64,000 nt of DNA, taken from NCBI RefSeq assembly GCF_013812825.1, contig NZ_JACCSU010000068.1:77845-141844 (forward strand), written 5' to 3'. The DNA is from Sphingomonas sp. GTDB taxonomy: Bacteria; Pseudomonadota; Alphaproteobacteria; Sphingomonadales; Sphingomonadaceae. Below are positions 4,304-33,946 of this stretch, piece by piece (position 1 is the first letter of the stretch; each line of letters opens with the position of its first letter). The position numbers and the translations under genes were made by a program. A model generated the notes under the pieces. That model did no database searches, was not told the DNA's origin, and saw nothing but the letters and a program-made list of their open reading frames with translations.

Positions 4304-4343
4304 ACCAATCAGCGCTTGACGCGAGTCCCCGTGTTGCCTACAC

Positions 4344-4358
4344 GTTCTCCGTTCGTTC
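4344..4358 (+). promoter_or_regulatory. Alphaproteobacterial LexA (SOS) box GTTC-N7-GTTC
   Basis: GTTC-TCCGTTC-GTTC, 27 bp upstream of the lexA ATG and just downstream of a TTGACG -35-like hexamer (4316-4321). Confidence 0.9.
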
Positions 4359-4385
4359 CTGCTAAGGCCAAACGGGGTAACGCCA

Positions 4386-5039
4386 ATGCTCACCGCCAAG
4401 CAGCATGAATTGCTCATGTTCATCCACGAGCGGCTCGGTCGGACCGGGGTGTCGCCGAGCTTCGACGAGATGCGCGAAGCGCTCGATCTCAAGTCCAAGT
4501 CGGGAGTTCATCGCCTGATCTCCGCGCTCGAGGAGCACAAGTTCATCCGCCGCCTGCCCAACCGCGCCCGCGCCCTGGAAGTGGTCAAGATGCCGGAGAC
4601 GACCGCCCCCGCCGCCATCGCCGCGGCTGCGCGCCCTGCAGTCCCGGCGCCGGCCAACGACACCATCGAGATTCCGCTGTACGGACGGATTGCCGCCGGC
4701 ACTCCGATCGAGGCGCTGCAAGGCACCGAAGGGTTTGCGGTTCCCGCTGCGCTGCTCGGGCCGGGCGAGCATTACGCGCTCGAGGTATCGGGCGATTCGA
4801 TGGTCGAGGAAGGCATCCTCGACGGCGATTTCGCGCTGATCCGAAAGGTCGACACGGCGCGCGACGGCGAGATCGTCGTCGCTCTGATCGACGACAGCGA
4901 AGCGACTCTCAAGACCTTCCGGCACGAGGGCAGCATGATCCGCCTCGACCCGGCCAACCGCCATTACGAGCCGCAGCGCTACCGGCCCGACCAGGTGCAG
5001 ATCCAGGGGCGGCTGGCGGGGCTGATCCGCCGCTATTGA
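4386..5039 (+). CDS. lexA: SOS repressor LexA
   Basis: N-terminal wHTH ([22 protein letters not shown]), IAAG cleavage site, GDSM catalytic Ser and TLK catalytic Lys. Confidence 0.98.
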
Positions 5040-27535: not shown

Positions 27536-29577
27536 TCCGCCGCCTCGCGGAATTCGCGGCCGTGGAGCAGCTCCTCCGAGCAGCGGCGCATGGTCGGGCT
27601 CGCCCGGCAGATCGCGTTGGTCAGGTAGAAATCGGCGATCGGATAGCGCACCGCACCCTCGGCCTTCGAGTCGAGCTCCGGCGGTGCCCAGGGCAGATCG
27701 ATGAGGCCGTCGCGGCCGAGCTCGGGATAGTCGGCAATCATCGAGTCCCGAAGCTGGTCGAGGCTGTCGAACGGAAGCGCTTGGCCGGCCAGCTCGCTGA
27801 CTGCCCGCAAGATCGCCCAGTCCTCGCGCGCTTCGCCGGGCGGGAACACCGCGCGCTCGCCGCGCTGAACGCGGCCTTCGAGACTGACGTAGGTGCCGTG
27901 CTTCTCGGCGTAGGCCGCGCCGGGCAGAACGAGGTCGGCGCTGCTCGCGCCGACATCGCCGTGGTGGCCGATGTAGACCTTGAACGCGCCCTTGAAGCGG
28001 TCGGCCGCGACTTCGTCGGCCCCGAGCAGAAACACCATTTGCGGCTCGGCGGCCTCGATGTCGGCGATTCCTCCGGGCTGCGCGTAGCCGAGGATCAGCC
28101 CCGCCATTCGCGACGCCGCGGTGTGGATGACGTTGAAGCCGTTCCAGGCAGCCTGTCCTGAGCTTGTCGAAGGGCGGACGAGCCTGAGCGGCCCGGCCAA
28201 GGCGAGCGCGGCGCCCAGGGCATTGCCGGCGAGCGCCCCCGGCCCGAGGATCAGCGCCGGGCGCTCCGCCGCTTCGAAGGCTTCCGACACTCCCTTTGGA
28301 ATCTTGCCCAGCAGCTTGAGATCGTTGCCGATCCACTCGACTCGCATCCCGAGGTCGACTTCCGGCCCGATGGCGAAAATCCTCGCGCCCTTGCGCGCCG
28401 CCTTGCGCAATCGGGTGTTGATCAGCGGCGCTTCCCAGCGCGGGTTGGTGCCGACCAGAAGCACCGCGTCGGCGCTCTCGATCCCGGCAATCGTCGAGTT
28501 GAACGCGACCGCCGACAGGCTCGAAATGTCATAAGCAAGGCCGGTCTGGCGGCCTTCGAGCAGGGCCGACCCCTGCGCTTCGAGCAGCTTTTTGGCCGCA
28601 TACATGGTTTCGGCGTCGAGCAGGTCGCCGGCGATCGCCGCGACGCCGGCGCCCGCTTTCTTCAGCCGCGCGGCGAAGACATCGAGCGCCTCGCCCCAGT
28701 CGGCTTCGCGCAGCTTGCCCGCGCCCTCGCCTTCTTTTGGGCGCACCCACGGCCGGTCGAGGCGATTGCGCACCAGGGCATCGACATGATGGCGCGTCTT
28801 GTCGTGGATCCACTCCTCGTTCACGTCCTCGTTGATGCGCGGCAGAATGCGCATCACCTGACGCTGGCGGACGTCCAGACGGATGTTGCTTCCAACTGCG
28901 TCCATGACGTCGATCGCCGGCACCCGGCGCAGCTCCCACGGACGGCTCTCAAAAATCTGCGGCTTCTGAAGCAGCGCCCCGACCGGGCAGATGTCGGCCA
29001 GGTTGCCGGCCAGCTCGCTGGTCACTGCGCGCTCGAGGTAGGATGTGATCTGCGCGTCCTCGCCGCGGTACAGCATGCCGAGCTCCGGCTCGCCCGCGAC
29101 CTCCTCGGCAAAACGGACGCAGCGGGTGCACTGGATGCAGCGAGTCATCGAGGTCTTGATGACCGGGCCCATATATTTGTCGTCGATCGCCCGCTTGTTC
29201 TCCTCGAACCGCGAGAAGCTGCGGCCGTAGGCCATCGCCTGGTCCTGGAGGTCGCATTCGCCGCCCTGGTCGCAGATCGGACAGTCGAGCGGGTGGTTGA
29301 TGAGCAGGAACTCCATCACCCCCTCGCGCGCCTTTTTCACCATCGCGGTATCCGTGCGGATCGTCTGGCCGTCGGCGGCGGGCAGAGCGCAGCTCGCCTG
29401 CGGCTTTGGCGGACCCGGAGCGACTTCGACCAGGCACATCCGGCAATTGCCGGCGATCGACAGCCGCTCGTGATAGCAGAAGCGCGGGATCTCCTTGCCG
29501 GCAAGCTCGCACGCCTGCAGTACGGTCACGCCCTGCGGGACCTCGAGCTCGATGCCGTCGACGGTAACCTTTGGCAT
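27532..29577 (-). CDS. nuoG: NADH-quinone oxidoreductase subunit G
   Basis: [36 protein letters not shown] and RCIQCTRC motifs. Confidence 0.98.
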
Positions 29578-30197
29578 TATCTCGCCGCCGTCGAATTGTG
29601 TTGAGCGAGGCGATTGGCGCCAAGCGCGAGCAATGCGCGCAACGCTTCACGGGTGAAGCGCGACTTGCTGTTGGCCGGAAGGCATCCGCCGAGCACCGGG
29701 CCAAGCGCGACGATGGCGTCATATTCGGCGGCTGTCGCGGGATCCGTCTTGAGCAGCCGAGCAACCGCTGCCGCGTCTTTCCGCACCGCGCAGAACGCCA
29801 TCAGCTCGCCGGCATTGCGCGCCTCGATGGCGGGCAGCGCCGGGTTGTACCCCGTGCGCGCGGCCAGATCGTCGAGGCTTCCGTCGCGGCGCAGCAGGCC
29901 TTCTGCAAGCGCACCGCCCCACAGCAACGTGCCCGACGAATAGGCTCCCCTGGGAACGCTGACGCCAGGGCACGGAGCAGGCCGGTTGACCAGCTTGCGC
30001 ATTTCCTTCCCGTAGGCGCGATCGCGGAAATCCGAGTCGAGCAGCGCGCGCACCGCGACCGGGCGCTCGATGGCAACGCATCGCCCGTAGGCGTGCAGCG
30101 CGCGCAGAGCCTTGGGGCTGGACTTCCCGCCGATTTCCGCTTCCGAGGGTGCGGACGCGGCCATGGCAATCGCGACGATAAGCGAGACGAGCATCAT
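29577..30197 (-). CDS. Secreted hypothetical protein with two Cys-containing internal repeats
   Basis: Signal-peptide-like N-terminus and four Cys; overlaps both neighbours (ATGA upstream, TAATG with nuoG). Confidence 0.75.
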   Translation of the reverse strand: MMLVSLIVAIAMAASAPSEAEIGGKSSPKALRALHAYGRCVAIERPVAVRALLDSDFRDRAYGKEMRKLVNRPAPCPGVSVPRGAYSSGTLLWGGALAEGLLRRDGSLDDLAARTGYNPALPAIEARNAGELMAFCAVRKDAAAVARLLKTDPATAAEYDAIVALGPVLGGCLPANSKSRFTREALRALLALGANRLAQHNSTAAR

Positions 30198-30328
30198 TCC
30201 CGATCCTCACTCTCGTCTTCATCGCGGCGGTGCTCGATGTGGGTGACGCGCGGGCCCGACGGGCGCATCAGCATCATCACCGCTACGACGAGCACGAGCA
30301 GCAAGGCGAGGATGATCACGAAGCGCAT
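30194..30328 (-). CDS. 44-aa single-TM microprotein
   Basis: Not in the ORF track. [44 protein letters not shown]; TGATG and ATGA overlaps with its neighbours; GC3-biased codons. Confidence 0.75.
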   Translation of the reverse strand: MRFVIILALLLVLVVAVMMLMRPSGPRVTHIEHRRDEDESEDRE

Positions 30329-30447
30329 CAGCCGCGCTCCGGCCCGCGGGCACGCGGGCGAAGGAGCTGGGCGAGCCGATAGGCGGCGACGGCCGCGAGG
30401 ATGAAGGCGACGAGCGCAAACGTCGCGAGGCCGGAATGGGAAGTCAT
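30328..30447 (-). CDS. 39-aa single-TM microprotein
   Basis: [39 protein letters not shown]; ATGA overlap with the nuoF stop. Confidence 0.6.
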
Positions 30448-31754
30448 TCGGCGGCCTCCAGCATGGTGCGCCCGGCGCGCTCGGCGATTCGGCGCTCGAG
30501 CTCGGGCCGGAAGTGGCGGATCAGGCCCTGGATCGGCCAGGCCGCGGCGTCGCCCAGAGCGCAGATCGTGTGGCCCTCGACCTGCTTGGTGACGTCGAGC
30601 AATTTGTCGATCGTCTCGACGGTCGCGTCGCCCTCGCGCAGGCGCTCCATGGTCCGCCACATCCAGCCGGTGCCCTCGCGGCACGGAGTGCACTGGCCGC
30701 AGCTCTCGTGCTTGTAGAAGTAGGAGATGCGGGCGATCGCACGGACGATGTCGGTCGATTTGTCCATGACCGTCACCGCCGCGGTGCCAAGGCCGCTGCC
30801 GAGATCCTTGAGCCCGTCGAAATCCATCGGCGCGTCGATGATCTCGTGCGCCGGGACCAGCGGCACCGAAGAGCCGCCGGGGATCACCGCGAGCAGATTG
30901 TCCCAGCCGCCGCGGACTCCGCCGCCGTGCAGCTCGATCAGTTCGCGGAAGCTGATCGACATCGATTCTTCGACCACGCACGGCGTGTTGATGTGGCCCG
31001 ACAGCTGGAACAGCTTGGTGCCGCTGTTGTTCTCGCGGCCGAAGCTCTTGAACCACTCGGCGCCGCGGCGAAGGATGGTCGGCACGACGGCGATCGATTC
31101 GACGTTGTTGACCGTGGTCGGGCAGCCGTAGAGGCCCGCGCCCGCGGGGAACGGCGGCTTCAAACGCGGAAAGCCCTTCTTGCCCTCGAGGCTTTCGAGC
31201 ATCGCGGTTTCTTCGCCGCAGATATAGGCGCCGGCGCCGCGGTGAACGAACAGGTCGAAGTCGTAGCCCGACCCGGCGACGTTCTTGCCGAGCAGGCCGG
31301 CCGAATAAGCGTCGGCGACGGCTTTCCTGAGCGCCTCGGTCTCGCGGACGAACTCGCCGCGGATGTAGATGTACCCGGCCCGGGCGCGCATCGCGAAGCC
31401 GGCGATCAACGAGCCCTCGATCAATTTGTGCGGGTCGTGGCGGATGATCTCGCGGTCTTTGCACGATCCCGGCTCGGATTCGTCGGCATTGACGACCAGG
31501 AAATTGGGTTTCCCGGGCTTGGGCTCCTTGGGCATGAAGCCCCATTTCATGCCGGTCGGGAAGCCGGCGCCGCCACGGCCGCGAAGGCCGCTCTCCTTGA
31601 TGATGTCGATGATCGGGTCCTGGCCCAGCTGCATCAATTTGGCGGTGTCGTCCCAATCGCCGCGCTGCTTCGCGGCTTTCAGGTCGGGCGACTGGAAGCC
31701 GTAGACGTTGGTGAAGATGCGGTCCTTGTCCGCAAGAGGCCCGGTGCTGGTCAC
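30444..31754 (-). CDS. nuoF: NADH-quinone oxidoreductase subunit F
   Basis: [30 protein letters not shown] and [12 protein letters not shown] motifs; GTG start. Confidence 0.98.
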
Positions 31755-31891
31755 GCGCCGATGCCCCCGGTCATGAAGTAGAAGACGGCCAGCAGGAGCA
31801 GCCCGAGCACGACGAATTTGATCATTCCGCTGATGAACTTGAACACCAGGAAGGCACCCACGACGGTGAGGATGATGGCGAGGATCTCCAT
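31751..31891 (-). CDS. 46-aa hydrophobic hairpin microprotein
   Basis: Not in the ORF track. [46 protein letters not shown]; TGATG and GTGA overlaps. Confidence 0.75.
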
Positions 31892-32043
31892 CAGCTTTTC
31901 GGGCTCTCGAGCAGCTTCATTCCGCCCCAGACCAGCAAGCCGGCGGCGGCGACCGCCAGCAGCAGGCCGACCACGCCTTTGACGATCTTCCAGGCGACGA
32001 TGATCAACAGGATCGCGACGACGATCTTGGCGATGTTCTTCAT
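31891..32043 (-). CDS. 50-aa hydrophobic hairpin microprotein
   Basis: [50 protein letters not shown]; ATGA overlap with the nuoE stop. Confidence 0.75.
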
Positions 32044-32708
32044 GCCCACTGCCCCCGATAGTCGTAGTTGCGCTCGGCCATTTTCTTGAGGCTGGTCGGA
32101 CCGCCGACCGGGCAGCTGGTCTGGCGCTCGATCTGCGGGCCCGGCCGGGGCGTTTCGCCGCGGGCGAGTGCGTCGAGGATCGCGGTCATGCTTTCCCCGG
32201 TCAGGTCCTCGTAATTGTCGTCGTTGATCTGGACCATCGGCGCATTGGCGCAGGCGCCGAGGCATTCGACCTCCGAGAGCGTGAACAGCTCGTCGTCGGT
32301 GGTCGCGCCCCTCCGGAGCCCACGCTGGTAGCAGGCGTCGAGCAAATCGTCGGACCCGCGCAACATGCACGGGGTCGTCCCGCACACCTGGACGTGGAAG
32401 CGGCCGACCGGGACAAGGTTGAACATGGTGTAGAAGGTCGCGACCTCGAGCACGCGGATGATCGGCATGCCGAGCTCGGCGGCGACGAACTCCATCACCG
32501 GGAGCGGCATCCAGCCCTGGGTATTGGTTTCGGCACCGACCTGCCGCTGGGCGAGATCGAGCAGCGGGATCACCGCCGACTGCTGCCGGCCTTCGGGATA
32601 GCGCGCGACGATTTCCGCCACCGCCTTGCGGTTGGCGTCGGTCCACGCAAAGCCGGACCAGCGCGCGCGCTGGTCGGCGTCGTCGAGGATGGAGGCTTGC
32701 CCGGCCAT
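32040..32708 (-). CDS. nuoE: NADH-quinone oxidoreductase subunit E
   Basis: EVATFYTMF, VCGTTPCMLRG and EVECLGACANAP 2Fe-2S motifs. Confidence 0.97.
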   Translation of the reverse strand: MAGQASILDDADQRARWSGFAWTDANRKAVAEIVARYPEGRQQSAVIPLLDLAQRQVGAETNTQGWMPLPVMEFVAAELGMPIIRVLEVATFYTMFNLVPVGRFHVQVCGTTPCMLRGSDDLLDACYQRGLRRGATTDDELFTLSEVECLGACANAPMVQINDDNYEDLTGESMTAILDALARGETPRPGPQIERQTSCPVGGPTSLKKMAERNYDYRGQWA

Positions 32709-33946
32709 TACCGGTCGACCTCCCCGAACACGACATCGATCGCGCTCAGCACCGCGGTGACGTCGGCGAGCATGTGGCCCTTCATCATGAAGTCCATCGC
32801 CTGCAGGTGCGAGAAGCCGGTCGGGCGGATCTTGCAGCGGTAGGGCCGGTTGGTGCCGTCGGCGACCAGATAGACCCCAAACTCGCCCTTCGGGCTCTCG
32901 GTGGCCACGTAAACCTCGCCGGCGGGCACGTGATAGCCTTCGGTGTAGAGCTTGAAGTGGTGGATCAGCGCCTCCATCGACGTCTTCATCTCGGCGCGCA
33001 TCGGCGGGAACACCTTGCGGTCGAGGCTGCCGATCGGCCCTTCCGGCATCTCGTTCAGGCATTGGCGCGCGATCCGCCACGATTGGCGCACTTCCTCGAC
33101 GCGGACCATGAAGCGGTCGTAGCAGTCGCCGTTGGTGCCGACGGGCACGTCGAACTCCATCCGGTCGTAGACTTCGTACGGCTGCGACTTGCGGATGTCC
33201 CAGGGAACGCCCGACGCCCGGATCATCGGCCCGGAGAAGCCCCAGGCGATCGCGTCCTCCTTGCTCACCTTGCCGATGTCGACGTTGCGCTGCTTGAAGA
33301 TGCGGTTGTCGGCAACCAGGCTGATCGCGTCCTCGAACAGGCGCGTGCGTTTGTCGAGGAACTCGCCGATCTGGTCGAACACCTTCGGCGGGATGTCGCC
33401 GTGGACTCCGCCGGCGCGGAAGTAATTGGCGTGCATCCGGGCGCCCGACACCGCCTCGTAGAGCTGCATCAGATCCTCGCGGATCTCGAACAGCCACAGG
33501 TTCGGAGTCATCGCGCCGACATCCATGATGTGGGTGCCAAGGTTGAGCATGTGGTTCTTGATTCGGGTCAGCTCCGCCATCAGCGTGCGGATGTATTGGG
33601 CGCGGAGCGGCACCTCGAGCCCCATCAGCTTCTCGATGGCGAGCACGAACCCATGCTCCATGCACATCGGCGAGGAGTAATCGAGCCGGTCGAAATAGGG
33701 CAGCGCCTGGGCGTAAGTCTTGTACTCGATCAGCTTCTCGGTCCCGCGGTGAAGCAGCCCGATGTGCGGATCGACGCGCTCGACGATCTCGCCGTCGAGC
33801 TCGAGGATCAGCCGAAGCACGCCATGCGCGGCCGGGTGCTGGGGGCCGAAATTGATGGTGTAGTTGTTGAGCGTCTCATCGCCGGCGGTCACGTCGCCGG
33901 CTTCGGGGACCCCAACGCTGACGTCGAGAGTGCGGGTTGCGGTCAT
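32708..33946 (-). CDS. nuoD: NADH-quinone oxidoreductase subunit D
   Basis: [25 protein letters not shown] and [10 protein letters not shown] motifs. Confidence 0.98.

Follow-up and report, generated by a model that had tools for sequence, protein, structure and literature searches.

Extra reading frames, to which no function has been assigned, were noticed in the complex I operons of Alphaproteobacteria about thirty years ago, and unidentified reading frames (URFs) were reportedly found among the nqo genes of Paracoccus by Xu, Matsuno-Yagi and Yagi in 1991-93. Such extra open reading frames (ORFs) are embedded in otherwise canonical 14-gene nuo operons (PMC4758237, PMC9036352). Of these, the closest to the case presented here is urf1, which lies between nuoE and nuoF in Rhodobacterales (PMC13066640). 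Here we describe two adjacent small genes, ORF1 and ORF2, which occupy this position in a stretch of 64,000 nucleotides (nt) of Sphingomonas sp. DNA (assembly GCF_013812825.1, contig NZ_JACCSU010000068.1, positions 77,845 to 141,844 of the forward strand), referred to as the window. The original prediction, made from the sequence of the window, had presented the pair as the best candidate for an undescribed multi-component module; as stated this is not supported, as a gene for a transmembrane (TM) hairpin at exactly this position has already been described in Rhodobacterales (PMC13066640, PMC12079452). What is new is a minimal two-gene variant of the urf1 slot, composed of unnamed protein families, while the kind of element was already known.

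Urf1 was seen as a protein only in 2025-26, unexpectedly in photosynthetic reaction centre-light-harvesting 1 (RC-LH1) complexes, and a literature search brought up small proteins encoded between nuoE and nuoF only in the two papers on these complexes. The gene is carried by Rhodobacter (Rba.) capsulatus, Rba. sphaeroides, Roseobacter denitrificans and Dinoroseobacter shibae (PMC13066640). The encoded proteins show no sequence similarity to each other and all have U-shaped tandem TM helices, the shortest being that of Rba. sphaeroides (70 amino acids, aa), which consists of the hairpin only (PMC13066640). In Rhodovulum (Rdv.) sulfidophilum, cryo-electron microscopy (cryo-EM) located protein-3h, an N-terminal fragment of Urf1, in the gap of LH1, and the authors suggested that Urf1 might be a 'plug' of LH1-RC or act in complex I assembly or regulation (PMC13066640). 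In D. shibae, the nuoE-nuoF-encoded protein-O (239 aa) contributes an N-terminal helix-turn-helix TM motif to RC-LH1, and both ends of this hairpin are on the cytoplasmic side, as seen by cryo-EM (PMC12079452).

The genes of the window lie at the same nuoE-nuoF position as those for Urf1 (D. shibae protein-O/protein-LRC, PDB 8YZ2; protein-3h). From hydropathy, ORF1 and ORF2 may each have two adjacent hydrophobic helices, such as those of Urf1, and there is no sequence conservation between the lineages. Unlike urf1, the slot holds here two genes of 46-50 aa, devoid of a third helix, linker or C-terminal domain. Moreover, it is a modular slot of Sphingomonadaceae, served by three sequence families, and its second protein is predicted to be opposite in orientation.

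Other small membrane proteins offer looser parallels. ORF1 and ORF2 resemble the CydX-type subunits in size and hydrophobicity, without homology to them. Such accessory subunits, which include CydX of cytochrome bd, NdhP and NdhQ of cyanobacterial NDH-1, protein-U/Y of Rba. sphaeroides RC-LH1 and the mitochondrial single-TM supernumerary subunits, are tiny, hydrophobic and stabilising, are often encoded in the operon of the partner complex and are dispensable for catalysis. The other URFs of alphaproteobacterial nuo/nqo operons, among them the urf genes of Rba. capsulatus, are likewise extra ORFs within the operon; they encode mostly larger soluble proteins (urf7 encodes a methyltransferase), and none is a subunit in the structure of Paracoccus complex I. 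This structure, at 2.3 Å, contains the 14 core subunits together with NDUFS4, NDUFS6, NDUFA12 and PIMT (PMC11522691).

The minus strand of the window carries, in this order, nuoE, ORF1, ORF2 and nuoF (Table 1). The chain nuoE-ATGA-ORF1-TGATG-ORF2-GTGA-nuoF, as originally predicted, is exact, and so are the lengths of 50 and 46 aa. The 3' end of nuoE reads CAG TGG GCA TGA, with the ATG of ORF1 inside the ATGA. The TGA of ORF1 and the ATG of ORF2 have one base in common, and the TGA of ORF2 overlaps the GTG start of nuoF. G-rich Shine-Dalgarno (SD)-like stretches are found 10-14 nt upstream of the ORF1 and nuoF starts, the one for ORF1 (GGGGG) being inside the 3' end of nuoE. With regard to nuoE itself, translation may start from the GTG at 32711 or from the ATG at 32708, the latter forming a TGATG overlap with the nuoD stop codon. 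An internal promoter or terminator was considered and rejected, since no promoter-like or terminator-like site was found between nuoE and nuoF. NuoF of the window is 84-94% identical to NuoF of Sphingomicrobium, Sphingomonas and Allosphingosinicella genomes, and no further copy of either microprotein gene was found elsewhere in the 64-kb window.

In DNA of this composition (the window has 67% G+C and 594 ORFs with a length of 25 aa or more), ORF length alone is weak evidence for a gene. ORF1 and ORF2 stand above chance ORFs because they are conserved, have a gene-like G+C content at the third codon position (GC3) and show a coding-type substitution pattern. Homologues with 60-98% identity were found in Sphingomonadaceae for ORF1 (n=140) and ORF2 (n=51); none has a name other than 'hypothetical', and wherever an organism is given, the source is a metagenome-assembled genome (MAG) of Sphingomonas or Sphingomicrobium. 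A profile of diverse ORF2-type sequences extends the ORF2 family, termed B hereafter, to at least 1178 sequences. In a library of 1.84 billion representatives, family B accounts for 55 clusters at 50% identity, a narrow lineage, and the longer matches in this library are mostly frameshifted or chimeric-looking calls. Furthermore, the pair is annotated by gene callers in public assemblies; on one contig of 756 kb, for instance, the nuoE-nuoF gap holds genes of 58 and 46 aa.

The GC3 of ORF1 (0.92) and ORF2 (0.91) is close to that of nuoE (0.89) and nuoF (0.90), within a range of 0.86-0.92 for the slot genes, while the second-position value (GC2) is 0.35 for ORF1 and 0.30 for ORF2, a low value that is expected from hydrophobic codons. 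Between species, sequence pairs of the ORF1 family (A) differ by 0.33/0.13/0.42 at codon positions 1/2/3, and those of family B by 0.35/0.24/0.49. The ratio of non-synonymous to synonymous substitution rates (dN/dS) is 0.37 for A and 0.40 for B (0.37-0.42 for the slot genes), whereas the same pairs of genomes give 0.18-0.21 with nuoE and 0.12-0.14 with nuoF. A and B are thus under purifying selection, relaxed about two- to threefold in comparison with the core subunits. Judged by these sequence properties, ORF1 and ORF2 are real genes, conserved as proteins. The idea that they are chance ORFs, or an untranslated stretch of conserved non-coding spacer, draws on the ease with which high G+C gives rise to long ORFs. 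It is highly improbable in view of the third-position-biased substitutions with GC3 of ~0.9 and GC2 of ~0.3, the ORFs that are intact and keep their lengths in more than 100 loci, the family-specific invariant residues and the detection of Urf1 slot products as proteins (PMC13066640, PMC12079452).

No Pfam or NCBIfam model matches either protein at its cut-off, the best being DUF7649 for ORF1 (17.2 bits, cut-off 27) and MnhG for ORF2 (10.5 bits, cut-off 156). The automatic names given to these microproteins by the Joint Genome Institute (JGI), namely 'high-affinity Fe2+/Pb2+ permease', 'MnhG subunit', 'PurR-regulated permease PerM' and 'amino acid transporter', are spurious, as short and very hydrophobic sequences match by composition.

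The nuoE-nuoF gap was compared in relatives by fetching 80 species-representative loci (numbered L001 onwards) through NuoF, and it could be read in the 79 that contain both nuoE and nuoF. Its length ranges from -4 to 676 nt and it holds three families of hydrophobic proteins of 45-55 aa, namely A, B and C. Family C (MIGLIIAVIIAILLIGLLLKLLKIAIILAL..AQNKFGTKRIK, 48 aa), which does not occur in the window, replaces the ORF1 type directly after nuoE in L003 (1842-1988), L009, L010, L015 and about 23 others. The architectures found are B alone (18 loci), C-B (17), A-B (14), A alone (about 10), C alone (10) and none or other (10, including five in which nuoE abuts nuoF), so that family B is present in 49 of the 79. 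A and C never occur together; A or C always comes first and B always second. The gap is a modular slot, with A, C or nothing at the first position and B or nothing at the second. Relatives with a NuoF more than 90% identical to that of the window differ in architecture (L001 A-B, L002 B, L003 C-B, L004 B, L005 A-B), and the turnover of the slot is therefore fast.

As an independent check, metagenome contigs were searched by a family-B peptide motif only. All 78 loci found in this way adjoin nuoE and/or nuoF, with both flanks seen in 68 and one in 10, where the contig mostly ends at the other side. The position is thus fixed. Of the phyletic co-occurrence with nuo, one direction holds, as all family-B loci are inside nuo operons; the converse is false, and some nuo operons lack these genes. 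This linkage bears on the proposal that the microproteins are Urf1-type plugs of another partner, such as RC-LH1 in phototrophs, or else cytochrome bc1, an oxidase or the interface of a supercomplex, for which the nuo operon would supply only strong and coordinated expression. The proposal accords with the dispensability and quick turnover of the slot genes with the location of the only Urf1 products placed so far, D. shibae protein-O and Rdv. sulfidophilum protein-3h, in RC-LH1, and with the composition of Paracoccus complex I, in which such a subunit is missing. Notwithstanding, it appears rather unlikely: if complex I played no part, a linkage to nuoE/nuoF of 100% in 78 independently found loci would be difficult to account for, and the surroundings of the loci showed no photosynthesis gene. 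In addition, most of the Sphingomicrobium and Sphingomonas relatives are not known to be phototrophs.

The coupling between the genes is also kept in relatives. Of 56 loci, 37 have a junction of -4 or -1 nt from nuoE to the first ORF; C and B are joined at -4 nt in 14 of 15, and A and B at -1 or -4 nt in all 8; G-rich SD-like motifs precede the slot genes. Wider spacings are mostly due to inserted repeat elements. Short repeats similar to repetitive extragenic palindromes or miniature inverted-repeat transposable elements (REP/MITE-like) were observed in the gaps of L008, L014, L018, L020, L028, L030 and L044, and equally in those of L050, L062, L065, L066, L068, L072 and L076, with the recurring translations ..VIASAAKQSS..LDCFVA.LLAMT.., ..PLPGGERIEVRGL..SPSP.RGEG.. 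and ..VIPAKAGI... From the overlapping stop and start codons and the strict linkage it follows that the microproteins would be made together with NuoE and NuoF.

The same overlaps could be read differently, in that hydrophobic ORFs may have recombined into the junction as benign passengers or translation relays and been kept because nuoF translation relies on read-through. Selection would then act on ORF integrity and harmless membrane insertion only, and not on a specific partner. In line with this, overlaps are preserved at both sides of the slot, nuoE overlaps nuoF directly in two loci with an empty gap (L064, L073), the slot genes are less constrained than nuoE and nuoF, and gain, loss and swapping are seen among species with NuoF more than 90% identical. 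Several unrelated-looking TM ORF types are found in the same slots as well. In the gap of L007 (3390-4001), the A gene is followed by a 2-TM ORF of about 63 aa, a copy of the nuoE 3' end and a 2-TM ORF of 72-74 aa, whose homologue is carried by L014. The copy spans 56 bp (52/56 identical) and includes the TGATG junction, which suggests that cassettes can be added by recombination at the junction of nuoE and the first ORF. On the other side, residues are invariant over hundreds of sequences (K19, K22, G23, G40 and G41 in A; G22 and K25 in B), the charge bias described below is consistent and family-specific, and dN/dS is well below 1. Taken together, these features amount to a constraint beyond that on any hydrophobic peptide, and passengers or relays seem an unlikely explanation.

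Both central motifs that had been pointed out, AWKIVKG in ORF1 and VFKFISG in ORF2, are present. In ORF1, hydrophobic runs at residues 7-18 and 23-42 are separated by the break W18-K19-I-V-K22-G23, and further lysines are found at the N-terminus (K2, K6) and in the tail (K43, K49). In ORF2, the runs comprise residues 3-17 and 26-40, with the break K18-FISGMI-K25 and no basic residues at the termini. The runs of the window pair are thus 12+20 (ORF1) and 15+15 (ORF2) residues long, split by invariant Lys/Gly, and the family means are 12+20 for A, 16+18 for B and 19+15 for C, with two lysines between. The residues K6, I7, A10, A17, K19, K22, G23, G35, G40, G41, L44 and L45 are invariant in the ORF1 family. 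The central residues W18/K19/K22/G23 of the ORF1 family and K18/F19/G22/K25 of the ORF2 family are invariant or nearly so, and G22 and K25 are invariant throughout the diverse ORF2 family. From hydropathy, each protein is predicted to be a helix-turn-helix membrane hairpin, which is the simplest reading because a single span would put both lysines in the core of the bilayer.

The families also differ in charge distribution. The bias in lysine and arginine (K+R), taken as the count at the termini minus that in the loop and thus presupposing a hairpin, is +2.95 in A (1 to 5), +1.96 in C (1 to 3) and -2.0 in B (-3 to -1); the positive and negative ranges are disjoint, and the values for the window are +2 for ORF1 and -2 for ORF2. 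Under the positive-inside rule, the termini of ORF1 and of family C would be cytoplasmic, as would the Lys-flanked loop of ORF2, and this opposite bias suggests that ORF1 and ORF2 are oppositely oriented in the membrane. The termini-in orientation predicted for A and C is that of the solved Urf1 hairpins. Oppositely oriented homologous pairs are reportedly known from the work of Rapp et al. (2006) to arise from dual-topology proteins (EmrE-like YdgE/YdgF, Fluc), and ORF1 and ORF2 resemble them in being adjacent, possibly paralogous and opposite in K+R bias. Unlike ORF1 and ORF2, for which paralogy is moderately supported, the EmrE-like and Fluc proteins have 4 TM helices per protomer and form proven antiparallel dimers. 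Moreover, A and B also occur singly, with the bias unchanged, in contrast to dual-topology-derived pairs.

An old tandem duplication had been proposed for the pair, and the comparison of the families gives it partial support. With alignments of close homologues, hhalign assigned A and B a probability of 12%; with diverse alignments from the loci it assigned 53% (score 22.4), a score reached by 2 of 150 column shuffles that kept the polar/apolar pattern. For B and C the probability was 49%, with 1 of 150 shuffles as high. The profile comparison of A and C was not significant (10 of 150 shuffles as high) and the reversed template scored higher, so that A-C homology by this route was rejected. 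Some A proteins end in GQKRLK, which resembles the GTKRIK tail of C, and this common GxKR[IL]K tail is suggestive of A-C kinship. Four bridging sequences (P0314, P0316, P0328, P0339) reach 16-22 bits on the hidden Markov model (HMM) of A and 27-35 bits on that of B, scores attained by none of 200 shuffles on either HMM; P0314, P0316 and P0328 are family-B members with an A-like centre (..IAWKVLTG.IK..). ORF1 and ORF2 of the window do not themselves cross-score (1.3 and 2.1 bits). On the bridging sequences and the profile comparison, A and B are probably distant relatives, and an old common origin of the hairpin genes of the slot has somewhat more in its favour than against it. Two hybrids were observed in metagenomes, P0336 with an A-type N-terminal half and a B-type C-terminal half and P0318 with a B-type N-terminal half and an A-type remainder; they may have arisen by true recombination at the central motif that A and B share, or by chimeric assembly.

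The explanation that we tentatively favour is that the microproteins are dispensable hairpin plugs or assembly helpers that dock on a large complex in the membrane, for which the complex I membrane arm is the most probable candidate. Ribosomes finishing nuoE would pass through ORF1 and ORF2 into nuoF, and each product would fold in the membrane as a helix-turn-helix hairpin. ORF1 (termini-in) and ORF2 (loop-in) would be antiparallel and could pack side by side, with B as an added, oppositely oriented partner of A or C. Singly or paired, they would dock on a lipid-exposed surface of the large complex as a 'plug' that stabilises it or helps in its assembly. For these bacteria, most of which are not phototrophs, the co-expressed complex I membrane arm would be the most probable partner. 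ORF1 and ORF2 would be the Sphingomonadaceae counterparts of Urf1, reduced to the bare TM part, split or duplicated into two genes and diversified into three families. That the proteins are dispensable, turn over fast and evolve under relaxed constraint fits a peripheral and non-catalytic role. Furthermore, the nuoE-nuoF linkage, the invariant residues and the opposite charge bias argue that the role of the slot is linked to complex I expression and not to photosynthesis alone.

Several observations weigh against this explanation. AlphaFold2 monomers built on the family alignments are single continuous straight helices (residues 2-45 of ORF1, pLDDT (predicted local distance difference test) 92; residues 2-40 of ORF2, pLDDT 91.5), so that of the predicted 'hydrophobic hairpin' the two runs stand by hydropathy while the turn is not reproduced by these models; in this ORF1 and ORF2 differ from Urf1. 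A PDB search with both family profiles matched no chain at E<=10, Urf1-derived ones included, in a set that should include protein-O of 8YZ2; a search with NuoE did not bring up a Urf1-derived chain either, and as the Urf1 proteins are themselves mutually dissimilar, this criterion is not a strict one. No RNA runs containing the window sequence were found, only DNA metagenome runs, the best-matching being a soil metagenome (93% of sampled words). In complex I, NuoE and NuoF are located well away from the membrane, and the position of the genes is therefore uninformative on contacts. The gap is empty, with nuoE abutting nuoF, in at least five close relatives (L035, L045, L058, L064, L073), and the proteins are therefore dispensable for complex I as such; in Sphingomonas parapaucimobilis (L160), nuoE, nuoF and nuoG abut without inserts. 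Each family can also occur alone, which speaks against a requirement by complex I and against an obligate pair. The heterodimer that had been suggested is compatible with the opposite K+R bias, which fits an antiparallel pair, and is rejected in its obligate form since A and B are each found alone in many species. Finally, Urf1 products have been located experimentally only in RC-LH1, and not in complex I (PMC13066640, PMC12079452), and the Paracoccus complex I structure lacks a small TM extra subunit (PMC11522691).

Set against these precedents, a complex I accessory or assembly role for ORF1 and ORF2 is plausible, while their being subunits of the complex is not favoured by the nearest experimental cases. 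As stated in the original prediction, the claim of accessory subunits of complex I is not supported, given the presence of Urf1 in RC-LH1, the composition of the Paracoccus complex and the relatives devoid of the genes. A wider proposal, which we consider quite improbable, is that Urf1, A, B and C belong to a single pan-alphaproteobacterial class of adaptors that evolve fast, can replace one another and physically link other machinery of the membrane to complex I or to intermediates of its assembly. These adaptors would be made in fixed proportion to the N-module, with RC-LH1 as partner in phototrophs and respiratory partners in heterotrophs, and the pair of A or C with B would be an antiparallel four-helix unit from a duplicated hairpin. 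In a variant of this proposal, co-translational insertion of the microproteins would anchor the nuoB-nuoG stretch of the mRNA, which otherwise encodes soluble subunits only, at the membrane, so that the subunits of the peripheral arm would be made beside the membrane arm. Whichever role applies, the mostly non-phototrophic Sphingomonadaceae fill the slot of urf1 with minimal membrane proteins of 46-55 aa from three families, and cultivable relatives offer very small natural variants of presence, absence and swapping. Among these, Sphingomonas hankyongi SE220 (L015) and Sphingomonas sp. URHD0057 have the C-B architecture, and S. segetis YJ09 (L018) has C only.

Table 1. Genes and reading frames in and around the nuoE-nuoF gap of the window
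Feature	Position	Strand	Evidence or occurrence
nuoC ORF, 292 aa	33943-34821	minus	
nuoE (NDUFV2/24-kDa homologue)	32040..32711	minus	Pfam 2Fe-2S_thioredx E=6e-53; PDB NDUFV2 matches E=6e-61
ORF1, 50 aa, family A, position-1 microprotein	31891..32043	minus	sequence, homologues
ORF2, 46 aa, family B, position-2 microprotein	31751..31891	minus	sequence, homologues
nuoF (NDUFV1/51-kDa homologue)	30444..31754	minus	Pfam Complex1_51K (E=6e-47), SLBB_2, NADH_4Fe-4S
39-aa ORF, single TM	30328..30447	minus	found in 0/73 relatives
44-aa ORF, single TM and acidic tail	30194..30328	minus	found in 20/73 relatives
206-aa ORF, signal-peptide-like N-terminus	29577..30197	minus	found in 25/73 relatives

The 'five extra proteins' attributed to the operon are correct as ORFs, comprising ORF1, ORF2 and three more between nuoF and nuoG (29577..30447; Table 1). 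The latter are also chained by ATGA/TGATG stop/start overlaps and belong to no Pfam or NCBIfam family, and their patchy occurrence in 73 relatives makes the nuoF-nuoG gap a second variable slot. In Sinorhizobium meliloti (L162, a 3.7-Mb record labelled pSymB), nothing is found between nuoE and nuoF; instead, an 84-aa ORF lies between nuoD and nuoE (1882-2136) and a 214-aa ORF between nuoF and nuoG (4309-4953). The positions of inserts in nuo operons vary between alphaproteobacterial orders. A match on a Paracoccus aminovorans plasmid is an orphan nuoF and uninformative on the gap.

Other ORFs were observed in the nuoE-nuoF gap of single relatives. An ORF for a lipoprotein-like protein of 133-139 aa, preceded by a different TM ORF of 60-64 aa, is present in L059 (2263-2664, labelled Proteobacteria) and L074 (3579-3998, Allosphingosinicella), and a 55-aa 2-TM ORF lies downstream of family B in L022 (3837-4004) and L048 (3834-4001). 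Upstream of nuoE in the window, the nuoC ORF has a low-complexity tail of about 85 aa, rich in Pro, Ala and Lys, which is unusual for NuoC; the tail may be translated as annotated or be an extension of the ORF typical of G+C-rich DNA. Lastly, L009 (JBLNCZ010000027.1) is titled as a 'Bacillota bacterium' MAG, yet it carries a sphingomonad-type nuo operon with a C-B slot and a NuoF that is 89% identical, and the bin is probably mislabelled or contaminated.

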